Assembly (NCBI RefSeq): GCF_046105845.1
Contig: NZ_CP151004.1
Strand: one strand, 5' to 3'
Length of the DNA stretch: 64,000 bases
Origin: Escherichia coli
GTDB taxonomy: Bacteria; Pseudomonadota; Gammaproteobacteria; Enterobacterales; Enterobacteriaceae
The notes under the pieces are model-generated. The model was not told where the DNA came from and did no database searches. It saw only the letters and a program-made list of their open reading frames with translations. The translations under genes and the position numbers were made by a program. This document shows positions 4,139 to 55,362 of the stretch, piece by piece (position 1 is the stretch's first letter; each line of letters starts with the position of its first letter).

Positions 4139-4628
4139 CGGAAAATATCTGGAAAGCAGATCACAGTAAATAAAAAAACCTGCTGGTGAGGCAGGTTCTT
4201 TTATTTACTATTTTCAGGCCCAACACCGCAGCCTGTGCAACATCGTGTTCCAACGAACGAATTATAACCATCGGTGGACCCCGTTGCAATTAAGATAATG
4301 AGATTTATAATCCAGACGGTTGGGACGTTGCGCCGGATCGGACCAATTTCAAGTCCTGGCTACCGGACGGGTGGTGCTGCAGGTGGTGCCCTGATCCGGA
4401 GTGCAACATCGTGGTCCAACATACGTAAACCAGTATCGACAGGCAGTGTAAGGGTAAGGTGCTGGTGTTGCGCTCCTTAATAAGGAGAGCGGATGGACAC
4501 GCAGACACAAAAGTTAACCGTGCTCATTGCTGTACTGGAGCTATTAGTGGCTCTGTTACGGTTGATTGATTTGTTGAAGTAATGGGCAAATTGAAACGCA
4601 TCTAAGGGGGAATACCGCTTCCCCCTTT
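4139..4628 (+). repeat. Type I toxin-antitoxin repeat unit 1 (zor/orz-like), about 490 bp
   Basis: Near-identical to unit 2 at 4751..5240; begins gaaaatatctggaaag, ends with hairpin aagggggaataccgcttccccctt. Confidence 0.7.
4493..4582 (+). CDS. 29-aa hydrophobic type I toxin peptide MDTQTQKLTVLIAVLELLVALLRLIDLLK (ZorO/ZorP-like)
   Basis: AGGAGA ribosome-binding site 7 nt upstream of ATG; absent from ORF track because it is under 60 aa; sequence recalled from memory as Zor-family. Confidence 0.6.
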   Translation: MDTQTQKLTVLIAVLELLVALLRLIDLLK

Positions 4629-4750: not shown

Positions 4751-5240
4751 AAAAATATCTGGAAAGTAGATCGCAGAAAATAAAAGAACCTGCTGGTGAG
4801 GCAGGTTCTTTTATTTACTACTTTGATGTTAAGTTACTGATAGTGCAACATGGCATCTCAACGAACGAATTATAACCACCGCTGGACCGTGTTGCAATTA
4901 AGATAATGAGATTTATAATCCTGACTGTTGGGAAGTTGCGCCGGATCGAACCCATTTCAAGTCCTGGCTACCGGACGGGTGGTGCCGCAGGTAGTGCTCT
5001 GATCCGGAGTGCAACATGGCGACTCAACATACGTAAATCAGTATCGACAGGCAGTGTAAGGGTAAGGTGCTGGTGTTGCGCTCCTTAATAAGGAGAGCGG
5101 ATGGACACGCTGACACAAAAGTTAACCGTGCTCATTGCCGTACTGGAGCTATTAGTGGCTCTGTTACGGTTGATTGATTTGTTGAAGTAATGGGCAAATT
5201 GAAACGCAACTAAGGGGGAAAACCGCTTCCCCCTTTAATA
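4751..5240 (+). repeat. Type I toxin-antitoxin repeat unit 2 (zor/orz-like)
   Basis: Tandem copy of unit 1 with scattered substitutions; terminal hairpin overlaps the 3' end of yehK. Confidence 0.7.
5101..5190 (+). CDS. 29-aa hydrophobic type I toxin peptide MDTLTQKLTVLIAVLELLVALLRLIDLLK (ZorO/ZorP-like)
   Basis: Same ribosome-binding site and frame as copy 1; one Q/L difference at residue 4. Confidence 0.6.
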   Translation: MDTLTQKLTVLIAVLELLVALLRLIDLLK

Positions 5241-24039: not shown

Positions 24040-24176
24040 TCGCAACCAAACGACTCGGGGTGCCCTTCTGCGTGAAGGCTGAGAAATACCCGTATCACCT
24101 GATCTGGATAATGCCAGCGTAGGGAAGTCACGGACCACCAGGTCATTGCTTCTTCACGTTATGGCAGGAGCAAACT
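24040..24176 (+). ncRNA. TPP (thi-box) riboswitch in the thiM leader
   Basis: Contains ctggggtgcccttctgcgtgaaggctgagaaatacccgtatcacctgatctggataatgccagcgtaggga immediately upstream of thiM. Confidence 0.9.
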
Positions 24177-40312: not shown

Positions 40313-40339
40313 AAAAAATAAGCCCGTGTAAGGGAGATT
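40313..40339. other. Bacteriophage P2 attachment core sequence (unoccupied att site)
   Basis: Exact match to the 27-nt core aaaaaataagcccgtgtaagggagatt as recalled; no flanking prophage genes. Confidence 0.6.
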
Positions 40340-40483
40340 ACACAGGCTAAGGAGGTGGTTCCTGGTACAGCTAGCATTTTATGGGTTATGTTTTTCAGCG
40401 AAACGGATGATAACCTTAATAAATGCAGCTGTATGTGATCGGTTTCTAAGAATTTTCCATCCGGGAAAAATAATCGAAATTAA

Positions 40484-52100: not shown

Positions 52101-52240
52101 GGCAGCGCCGAAACGGGCAGGGCACGATAACCGATAATCCCGGCGAGTAAGATCGCCACCATCAGCAGCGTGGTGGCGACAGGACGCATAATAAACAGGC
52201 GCGATGGGCCGCCTGTGATGCTCGGGGGTAACACCTGCAT
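49118..52240 (-). CDS. mdtB: RND multidrug efflux pump subunit
   Basis: 1040 aa. Confidence 0.95.
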
Positions 52241-53487
52241 CAGGAGCGTGCTCCTTTTTTCGCGTATTCGCGGCTGGTGGCTTTCTCTTCCGGAGTGGTG
52301 GCGCTCTGGGCTTCCACTACTTCCACTTTCGCCCCTTCGGTCAGGCGATCAATGCCGTCTGTCACTACGCGGTCGCCCGCAGAAATACCTGCGCGGATCA
52401 CTACTTTCTGACTGTCCTGAATGCCCGGCGTCACCAGATGTTTGCTGACCTTGTTTTCGCTATTCAGCACCCAGACAAAATGGCCTTCGTTGCCCATTTG
52501 CAGAGCGGCGGTGGGGATCACCACGGCGTTTTGTTCGGTGTCGACTAACATACGCGCGTTAACAAACTGATTGGGAAACAGCGCATCATCCTGATTATTA
52601 AAGCGTGCTTTCACTTTAATCGTACCGGTAGTGGCATCGATTTGGTTATCGAGGCTTAACAGCGTGCCTTCACTTAATTTCTTCGAGTTGGTGCGATCCC
52701 AGGCTTCTACCACCAGCGGTTTTCCGGTTTTTTGCGCCTGTACTACGGTAGCGATATCGCTTTCCGGCAGGGTAAAGAGCAAATCGATAGGATGCGTCTG
52801 GGTGATCACCACAATCCCGGTGGTATCACCACTGGAGATTTGGTTACCAACATCAACCTGCTTGAGACCAACGCGACCATCGACTGGCGCGGTGATGCGG
52901 CTCCAGTCGAGTTGCAGCTGTGCGCTGGCGACGCTTGCTTCATCAGCCTTAATGGTGCCTTCGGTTTCACTGACCAGCGCCTGTTGGGCATCCAGTTCCT
53001 GACGAGATACGAGATTGGTTTTTACCAGTTGTTGATAACGCGCCAGGTCACGGCGGGCGTTGGCAAGCGTGGCTTTATCTTTTGCCAGTTGGCCCTGGGC
53101 TTGTGCTAATGCAACTTTGAACTGGCTTGGGTCAATTTCTGCCAGTAAATCGCCTGCTTTGACCTGCTGGCCTTCCTGGAAATGTAACGCCATCAGTTGA
53201 CCGTCCACGCGGCTGCGCACCGTAACGGTATTAGCGGCGGTAATGGTGCCAAGCCCGGTGAGATAACGTGGCACAGCTTGTTCTACGGCAGTCGCCGCCT
53301 GAACCGGGGCTAATGGACCGGAACGCATACCACGGCGACCACCCGCTGGCGATTGCTGCGCTTGTTTCGTCGCCCCTGGGGCTGCACTCTGGGAGTCATT
53401 GCGGCCTTGCCAGAACCAGAATGCGGCGATGGCGGCGATAACCACCACGATTACGATTACCCAACGGGATTTATAACTGCCTTTCAT
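52240..53487 (-). CDS. mdtA: RND membrane-fusion (periplasmic adaptor) protein
   Basis: 415 aa from [12 protein letters not shown]; ORF track extends 49 codons further upstream. Confidence 0.9.
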
Positions 53488-53540
53488 CGTTAAGAGTTTC
53501 TCTTCCTGAAACGTTTCGCGGAATGATACTAGTGTAGCCA

Positions 53541-53558
53541 GCCAATAAGGGAGAAAAA
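53541..53558 (-). promoter_or_regulatory. BaeR box upstream of mdtA
   Basis: Minus-strand TTTTTCTCCCTTATTGGC, 17 of 18 match to recalled consensus TTTTTCTCCATDATTGGC. Confidence 0.6.
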
Positions 53559-53689
53559 TGGAGGAATTATGAAACACTGTCGGGAATCGTCTGAATGACG
53601 GGCACATTTGCGAGCACGCATCCAGTAATAACACATGAAACTATTTTATCTACGCGTTAGCGATAGACTACGTGCATGGCGAAAGGAGG

Positions 53690-53850
53690 TAAGCCGATGA
53701 TTTCAGCGGGACGCTGAAACGGGAAAGCCCCTCCCGAGGAAGGGGCCATAAATAAGGAAAGGGTCATGATGAAGCTACTCATCATCGTGGTGCTCTTAGT
53801 CATTAGCTGGCCAGCTTACTAAGACTACCAGGGCGGGGGAAACCCCGCTC
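53690..53850 (-). ncRNA. Sib-type antisense sRNA antitoxin, copy 1 (approximate ends)
   Basis: Inferred from known ibs/sib architecture; hairpins flank the ibs ORF. Confidence 0.45.
53766..53822 (+). CDS. Ibs-family toxin peptide MMKLLIIVVLLVISWPAY
   Basis: 18-aa hydrophobic ORF with AGGAAAGGG ribosome-binding site; not in ORF track. Confidence 0.75.
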   Translation: MMKLLIIVVLLVISWPAY

Positions 53851-54019
53851 TACCCTCACTCCTGAAAGTATGCCTTCACGATAAGATTGTCAATCTGCAG
53901 GCTTTGCAGTCTGCGATCCTGCCAGCAAATATTCTTTGCGAGACGTTACGCAATAATCACACTGGAAACTATTTTATCCGCAAGTCAGCGATAGACTGCA
54001 TTCAGGGCGAAAGGAGGTA

Positions 54020-54180
54020 AGCCGACGATTTCAGCGGGACGCTGAAACGGGAAAGCCCCTCCCGAGGAAGGGGCCTTAAATAAGGAAAGGGTCATGATGA
54101 AGATACTCATCATCGTGGTGCTCTTAGTGATTAGCTACCCAGCATACTAAGACTACCAGGGCGGGGGAAACCCCGCTCTA
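54020..54180 (-). ncRNA. Sib-type antisense sRNA antitoxin, copy 2 (approximate ends)
   Basis: Inferred from repeat architecture. Confidence 0.45.
54094..54150 (+). CDS. Ibs-family toxin peptide MMKILIIVVLLVISYPAY
   Basis: Second repeat unit, same architecture. Confidence 0.75.
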   Translation: MMKILIIVVLLVISYPAY

Positions 54181-54349
54181 CCCTCACTCCTGAAATTATG
54201 CCTTCACGATAAGATTGTCAATCCGCAGGCTTTGCAGTCTGCGATCCTGCCAGCAAATATTCTTTGCGAGTCGTTACGCAATAATCACAGAGGAAACTAT
54301 TTTATTCACGCGTTAGCGATAGACTGCATTCAGGGCGAAAGGAGGTAAG

Positions 54350-54510
54350 CCGACGATTTCAGCGGGACGCTGAAACGGGAAACCCTCTCCCGGAGAAGAG
54401 GGCTTTTAATAAGGAAAGGGTTATGATGAAGCACGTCATCATACTGGTGATACTCTTAGTGATTAGCTTCCAGGCTTACTAAGAACACCAGGGGGAGGGG
54501 GAAACCTCTC
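54350..54510 (-). ncRNA. Sib-type antisense sRNA antitoxin, copy 3 (approximate ends)
   Basis: Inferred from repeat architecture. Confidence 0.45.
54423..54482 (+). CDS. ibsA: Ibs-family toxin peptide MMKHVIILVILLVISFQAY
   Basis: Third repeat unit; peptide matches recalled K-12 IbsA. Confidence 0.75.
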   Translation: MMKHVIILVILLVISFQAY

Positions 54511-54702
54511 CCTAACCCTCACTCCTGAAATTATGTCACTCCGCCCTTAGTGTCAATCGACGGCTCTCCGTTCTTGCGAGGCGAATAGCAAAATTTTCTG
54601 CGCCGCCGGGCCTAATTCTGAAAGTTTCTTCGTTTGCTCTTATTTCATTATTGCAATCGGTATGATACCGGACCTCGATAATTCTCTAAGAAAGGATTTC
54701 TT

Positions 54703-55362
54703 ATGAGCGAACAAATCACGTTTGCCACCAGCGATTTTGCCAGTAACCCGGAACCACGTTGCCCCTGCATTTTGCTGTTGGATGTTTCTGGTTCGATGAG
54801 TGGTAGACCTATTAATGAACTTAACGCCGGATTGGTTACCTTTCGCGATGAACTGCTTGCCGATTCGCTGGCCTTAAAAAGAGTGGAACTCGGCATTGTG
54901 ACGTTCGGCCCGGTGCATGTGGAACAACCCTTTACCAGCGCCGCTAATTTTTTCCCGCCCATCCTGTTTGCCCAGGGCGATACACCAATGGGCGCTGCCA
55001 TTACCAAAGCCCTGGATATGGTTGAGGAGCGCAAACGTGAGTATCGTGCAAATGGTATTTCCTATTATCGCCCGTGGATTTTCCTGATCACCGATGGCGC
55101 TCCAACCGATGAGTGGCAGGCTGCCGCCAACAAAGTGTTTCAGGGGGAAGAAGATAAGAAGTTTGCCTTCTTTACCATTGGTGTACAGGGGGCGGATATG
55201 AAGACGCTGGCACAAATCAGCGTTCGTCAGCCTTTGCCACTGCAGGGATTACAATTCCGTGAACTGTTTAGCTGGTTATCCAGTTCGCTGCGTTCGGTTT
55301 CCCGCTCCACGCCGGGAACGGAAGTTGTGCTGGAAGCGCCAAAAGGCTGGACGTCAGTGTGA
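54703..55362 (+). CDS. yegL: VWA-domain protein ([13 protein letters not shown])
   Basis: 219 aa. Confidence 0.9.

Follow-up and report, generated by a model that had tools for sequence, protein, structure and literature searches.

A three-unit Ibs/Sib type I toxin-antitoxin array in the mdtA-yegL region of an Escherichia coli genome and the variation of its length among strains

The region between mdtA and yegL in this Escherichia coli genome raises the question of (i) what is encoded by the tandem repeats it contains, and (ii) whether their number, which exceeds that of the laboratory reference K-12 by one, reflects a new event in this strain or a variation shared with others. The window analysed here (a stretch of 64,000 nt from contig NZ_CP151004.1) holds this intergenic region in full, from the start of mdtA to the start of yegL (53488-54702). 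On the left flank, mdtA (52240..53487, - strand, ATG at 53487; identified from the ORF list) is transcribed away from the array; its 415-aa product, used as a tblastn query, matches mdtA in the retrieved loci, and all matching genomes carry the annotation mdtA for this gene. On the right flank, yegL (54703..55362, + strand, ATG at 54703; identified from the ORF list and annotation) encodes a vWA-domain protein.

Three ibs/sib units of 328/329 bp each are arranged head-to-tail between these genes (53607-54590). Tandem Repeats Finder returned a single array at 53626-54535 with a period of 328, 2.8 copies and 90% matches, and a repeat search recovered three in-register copies with start-to-start distances of 328 and 328-332 bp; together with the Rfam matches described below, these results bear out the three tandem 328-bp ibs/sib units proposed in a first-pass annotation of the same DNA. 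As delimited by the in-register copies, unit 1 (53607..53934; IbsB/SibB type, F15W allele) adjoins mdtA, unit 2 (53935..54262; IbsB-like, IL...Y allele) occupies the middle position and is not present in K-12, and unit 3 (54263..54590, with an approximate 3' edge; IbsA/SibA type) adjoins yegL. Units 1 and 2 share 90% identity over 300 nt in the repeat search, and unit 3 is further diverged. The count of three could in principle be a mis-assembly artefact, as short-read assemblies can give a wrong count of tandem repeats of approximately 330 bp; however, local differences of 10-28% make the units individually distinguishable, and this explanation, to which we assign a practically negligible probability, was rejected on finding the identical arrangement in many closed genomes, including that of strain 042.

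Each unit carries a short ORF on the + strand that begins with ATGATG and specifies a hydrophobic peptide of 18-19 aa (MMK/R..., ending in Y), and each of these ORFs is located opposite to, and entirely within, the span of its Sib RNA. ORF 1 (53766..53822, + strand) encodes the 18-aa peptide MMKLLIIVVLLVISWPAY, i.e. IbsB with an F15W substitution, and its translation is the same peptide as WP_100249772.1, a protein that bears the RefSeq name 'type I toxin-antitoxin system Ibs family toxin' in both HCP5S3_I2 and 042. ORF 2 (54094..54150, + strand) encodes the 18-aa IbsB-like peptide MMKILIIVVLLVISYPAY, the same as WP_012767742.1, which RefSeq annotates as a member of the Ibs toxin family in 042, in E. 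coli B and in an O157-like strain, among others. The third ORF, ibsA (54423..54482, + strand), encodes the 19-aa peptide MMKHVIILVILLVISFQAY, which is identical to K-12 IbsA (WP_010723109.1 / b4667, 'toxic peptide IbsA'). K-12 IbsB carries only the annotation 'putative toxic peptide' (NC_000913.3), and the W15 and IL..Y (Y15) peptides of ORFs 1 and 2 are likewise regarded here as putative toxins. In each ORF, AAGGAAAGGGT is positioned 1 nt ahead of the ATG and G+C-rich hairpins lie on both sides, in agreement with the strong ribosome-binding site and flanking hairpins that the first-pass annotation had described. The three peptide sequences read at that stage agree exactly with the translations, and they are indeed absent from the ORF track, as had also been pointed out, because 18-19 aa is below all customary length cut-offs (the minimum of the listing being 20 aa). 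Very small toxin genes that are missed by length-filtered ORF tracks can hence be spotted by reading the sequence alone.

The opposite strand was assigned by a scan with all Rfam families, which was repeated over the whole window. Three full-length matches (model positions 1-147) to SIB_RNA (RF00113) were obtained on the - strand with 140.2, 142.2 and 149.5 bits and E-values of 1e-30 to 1e-32; since the gathering score of this family is 56, so that all three matches score approximately 2.5 times the threshold, chance is excluded. The ends of the RNAs were transferred by alignment of K-12 sibA, sibB and sibC (NC_000913.3) to the - strand of the window. Sib-1, the SibB orthologue, would accordingly be 136 nt in length with its 5' end at 53857 and its 3' end at 53722 (53722..53857; 140.2 bits at 53893-53751; -35 TTGACA at 53893-53888). 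Sib-2 would similarly comprise 136 nt from 54185 to 54050 (54050..54185; 142.2 bits at 54221-54079; -35 TTGACA at 54221-54216), and SibA 144 nt from 54520 to 54377 (54377..54520; 149.5 bits at 54556-54408; -35 TTGACA at 54556-54551). Sib-1 and Sib-2 differ from K-12 SibB at 4 and 7 nt, respectively, and the third RNA differs from K-12 SibA at 1 nt. Upstream of each K-12-defined 5' end the perfect TTGACA is followed by a CATAAT/CATACT-like element, and a G+C-rich terminator hairpin is present at the 3' end of each RNA. The predicted folds are more stable than those of shuffled controls, with energies of -59 kcal/mol for Sib-1 (z = -3.6), -59.6 for Sib-2 (z = -3.7) and -58.5 for SibA (z = -4.9), and in all three the closing stem is accompanied by three internal hairpins, an anti-Shine-Dalgarno (anti-SD) stretch that stays single-stranded, and a terminator. 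The architecture published for SibC is made up of the same elements (Han 2010, PMC2943612).

Just past the 3' end of each Sib RNA there is, in addition, a conserved hairpin, TTTCAGCG-GGA-CGCTGAAA, which is identical in all units (53701-53719, 54029-54047 and 54358-54376, + strand). Judged from ibsC, whose mRNA extends 18 nt beyond the Sib 3' end (Han 2010, PMC2943612), the position of this hairpin is approximately that of the expected ibs mRNA 5' end; it could be a component of an ibs leader structure or a bidirectional terminator.

K-12 MG1655 (NC_000913.3) carries two units at the same site between mdtA and yegL, with sibB/ibsB adjoining mdtA and sibA/ibsA adjoining yegL. This annotation confirms the two K-12 copies named in the first-pass annotation, and the unit described there as extra is so relative to this laboratory reference only (three versus two). 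The K-12 pairs and those of the window agree in locus, orientation, unit length (approximately 328 bp), promoter, RBS, terminator and fold; they differ in that K-12 lacks the intervening IbsB-like unit and that residue 15 of the mdtA-side peptide is F in K-12 and W in the window. For unit 1, the identity is 97% with the sibB/ibsB unit of K-12 and 100% with the first unit of E. coli 042; unit 2 matches unit 2 of 042 at 99.4% and unit 3 of four-unit arrays at approximately 96% (96.3%), and unit 3 matches the sibA/ibsA unit of K-12 at 99.4%. E. coli 042 (NC_017626.1) possesses the same three units and the same peptides (WP_100249772.1, WP_012767742.1 and WP_010723109.1), its interval being 99.5% identical over 1,321 bp and its array deviating from that of the window by a few point differences only. 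The more distant K-12 pair sibC/ibsC displays the same architecture, including a TRD1-equivalent loop over the 3' part of the ORF and a TRD2-equivalent single-stranded anti-SD stretch before the terminator, but is located elsewhere (fau-serA), has different TRD sequences, as expected of non-cognate pairs, and has ibsC promoter elements that are not conserved in the units of the window.

Indeed, a consensus scan for sigma-70 promoters recognised no ibs sense promoter for any of the three units. The position aligned to the mapped -10 element of ibsC (TACGAT) reads TAAGCC in all of them, and because of this and the outcome of the scan, ibs sense transcription may be very weak in these units. The same kind of scan yielded a promoter-like TTCAGA-18-CATAAT between the array and mdtA on the - strand (53541-53558 / 53566-53595 region). 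Just downstream of it, on the same strand, lies TTTTTCTCCCTTATTGGC, which we take to resemble the BaeR-box consensus, and this region probably corresponds to the mdtABCD promoter that is known to be under BaeR control.

How the units may be kept apart from one another, or otherwise, depends on the recognition domains of the Sib RNAs. In SibC, the loop TRD1 (+46 to +68) forms base pairs within the ORF, and TRD2 (+99 to +115) is single-stranded and pairs with the translation initiation region; the two are independent, either domain by itself suffices for repression, and the ibs mRNA is degraded (Han 2010, PMC2943612). The equivalents of these domains in unit 1 are located at 53794-53816 (TRD1) and 53747-53766 (TRD2). 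Sib-1 and Sib-2 differ at 6 of 136 positions, four of which fall in the 23-nt TRD1 equivalent, one in the P6 loop and one at the 3' edge of TRD2, and this pattern fits, as far as sequence comparison can indicate, the published model in which paralogous pairs stay separate because their recognition regions vary. Sib-1 and Sib-2 share the same TRD2 core, and for that reason insulation via TRD2 is not evident. Across 23 distinct IbsB-type units, the hot spots of variation are located in TRD1 and the P6 loop, 16% of the columns are variable in the Sib segment versus 44% in the spacers, and variation within the ORF is restricted to codons 4-5 and 12-17.

Since the TRD1 loops are distinct, the TRD2/anti-SD stretches are nearly identical and one domain is sufficient, each Sib could possibly repress more than its own target. 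The tandem IbsB-type units might then constitute a partly cross-talking network, in which each Sib would repress both IbsB-type mRNAs, the length of the array would tune antitoxin dosage rather than provide independent switches, and the confinement of variation to the two hot spots would point to diversifying selection still at work. We consider this extended proposal speculative and rather unlikely.

The same 23 units bear on the possibility that one or more units of the array are decaying relics that have lost a functional Sib RNA or Ibs peptide. Such decay would be in line with the failure to detect a consensus ibs sense promoter, with the tolerated loss of SibA in K-12 (Han 2010, PMC2943612) and with relaxed selection, which has been raised as a possible reading of the duplications (Fozo 2010, PMC2887945). 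However, all three ORFs are intact and their RBS is conserved, all three Sib genes retain the perfect -35 element and the terminator hairpin together with full-length family matches far above threshold, the Sib/ibs segment is considerably less variable than the spacers, and the changes in the ORF are restricted to the two RNA-recognition hot spots. Decay of this kind is thus judged highly improbable.

We regard it as very probable that the locus is a three-unit Ibs/Sib type I toxin-antitoxin array which would work as the K-12 pairs do and whose length is a common polymorphism in Escherichia. In K-12, the Sib RNAs are constitutive and cover the whole ibs mRNA, and each represses its cognate ibs alone, ibsA being an exception (Han 2010, PMC2943612). 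By analogy, each unit of the window would produce a constitutive antisense Sib RNA of approximately 136-144 nt from the - strand TTGACA promoter, and this RNA would completely overlap the ibs mRNA of the + strand. The Sib RNA is expected to contact its own ibs mRNA through the TRD1 loop, against the 3' part of the ORF, and through the single-stranded TRD2, against the ribosome-binding region; pairing would spread from these contacts, leading to degradation of the ibs mRNA so that no toxin would be made. If it were produced, the Ibs peptide would presumably enter the inner membrane as a transmembrane helix of 18-19 aa and cause depolarisation or a lower level of ATP. When overproduced, IbsC causes depolarisation of the inner membrane in a matter of minutes, and a hydrophobic core of approximately 15 residues is enough (review PMC8309996). 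Additionally, IbsA of Salmonella inhibits ATP synthase at its Fo sector, of which it binds subunits a and b, and lowers ATP (bioRxiv 10.1101/2025.05.26.656083).

To place the array length of the window among other strains, the interval was compared by megablast with 5,426 complete E. coli genomes, 5,419 of which contained the mdtA-yegL array locus. Unit numbers were estimated from two systematic samples of these genomes (60 and 40 rows, taken at even steps down the megablast ranking), in which the count was taken from how far the match extended and from the Ibs genes annotated there, rows with a match starting inside a longer array being counted from the records. In the sample of 60 rows, three units were present in 24, two in 26, four or five in seven and one in two, and the corresponding numbers in the sample of 40 rows were 15, 19, five and zero. 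From the two samples the shares are estimated at approximately 40% for three units, 45% for two, 10-13% for four or five and 3% for one. Examples of each length were verified, namely Ec-042-T20-ESBL (one unit), K-12 and Ecol_AZ161 (two), 042, HCP5S3_I2 and strain 118 (three), E. coli B and others (four) and FDAARGOS_1268 (five), and all genes in the verified one- to five-unit examples are annotated as 'type I toxin-antitoxin system Ibs family toxin' by the NCBI pipeline. Three units are therefore not what K-12 and most strains carry, as K-12 has two and the three-unit share is approximately 40%; equally, the rarity that the first-pass annotation had implied for the extra unit is not borne out, three units being about as common as two. 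The array is thus a member of a known family at a known locus, in one of the two commonest configurations and already annotated in public genomes, and the significance of the finding beyond annotation is slight. What it does illustrate is that K-12 is unrepresentative at this locus, given the one to five Ibs/Sib units among E. coli strains.

The two-unit class is itself heterogeneous. Ecol_AZ161 contains an array of two IbsB-type units with no IbsA-type unit beside yegL, which means that two-unit strains are not all K-12-like; other rows with the same span of approximately 986 bp and no ibsA named (F11, APEC E16002) probably share this arrangement. In E. coli ET82 (NZ_CP101005.1, retrieved 1-754), IS150 lies directly beside the first ibs unit on its mdtA-proximal side, and no mdtA is annotated in that stretch.

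Variation in the total number of Ibs genes is also documented in the literature. K-12 has five pairs (Han 2010, PMC2943612), O157:H7 EDL933 has six genes, and there are seven in each of Sakai, S. boydii, S. sonnei and E. fergusonii; duplication in tandem is treated as typical of ibs-sib (Fozo 2010, PMC2887945).

The second question, i.e. whether the middle unit arose by a recent duplication confined to this strain, can be answered from the same comparisons. Such an event is suggested at first sight by the lack of the middle unit in K-12 and by the fact that units 1 and 2 both encode 18-aa IbsB-like types. However, units 1 and 2 are just 90% identical to each other, while each is 97-100% identical to its counterparts in other strains, and since cross-strain identity thus exceeds that between the two units, the middle unit is old rather than the product of a recent duplication. 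Furthermore, the same three-unit haplotype occurs in 042 and in 48 records that match the interval of the window at an identity of at least 99%, and the sampled share of three-unit arrays among complete genomes argues in the same direction. The best matches of the units elsewhere (97.6-100% identity, to the same-position unit in the case of units 1 and 3) against the 90% between units 1 and 2 led us to reject a strain-specific duplication, and we attach only a very slight probability to a new event of this kind.

The preferred reading of an old, polymorphic array is consistent with the distribution of alleles. Among strains, IbsB-type variants of the forms LL..W, LL..F, LL..Y, IL..Y, IL..F and WI..F were encountered in varying orders, and other three-unit strains (O157:H7, O111, O103 and others) present different combinations of alleles from that of the window, e.g. 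IL..Y, WI..F and IbsA in the O157-like strain 118. Because the allele combinations are mosaic between strains, we infer unequal crossing-over and gene conversion, and the variation in array length (one to five units) is most likely explained by unequal recombination between the repeats.

An outgroup scan with an exact pattern, in which one genome per species was considered and 25 loci were returned, indicates where the IbsB-type units may have multiplied. Several Citrobacter species and S. enterica diarizonae have a single IbsA-like unit (19 aa) beside mdtA. Escherichia sp. MOD1-EC7003 has one IbsB-type unit between mdtA and yegL, one IbsB-type unit was detected beside mdtA in E. whittamii (the contig stretch examined ending inside yegL), and Escherichia sp. 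E1V33 has two units. From this distribution of single IbsA-like versus IbsB-type units, the 18-aa IbsB-type units appear to have expanded within Escherichia.

With regard to the wider surroundings, the 24-kb segment of the window at 36000-60000 is at best 97.9% identical to any of the 5,426 complete E. coli genomes, versus 99.5% for the sib interval alone (042). It seems that the source strain belongs to a lineage that is sparse among complete genomes, or that this 24-kb region is a recombination mosaic.

Tandem duplication and varying copy number are known from other type I toxin-antitoxin loci of this sort (Fozo 2010, PMC2887945). Like the array described here, ldr/rdl and zor/orz combine a small hydrophobic toxin with an antisense RNA and occur as tandem duplicates in one intergenic region with strain-variable copy number; in contrast, their sequences are unrelated to ibs/sib, and OrzO forms its pairing in the 5' UTR and does not overlap the whole mRNA. 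The whole-window Rfam scan returned two OrzO-P matches on the - strand (4172-4247 and 4782-4855; 101 and 90 bits, threshold 60), which suggest a zor/orz type I toxin-antitoxin pair in tandem, so that the window would hold two different tandem type I arrays. In O157:H7, zor/orz is located between yehI and yehL, and it is absent from K-12 MG1655 (Fozo 2010, PMC2887945). Two further matches from the same scan, the CyaR/RyeE sRNA (40316-40401, - strand, 100.7 bits) and a TPP riboswitch (24046-24142, + strand, 71.2 bits), represent ordinary E. coli features.
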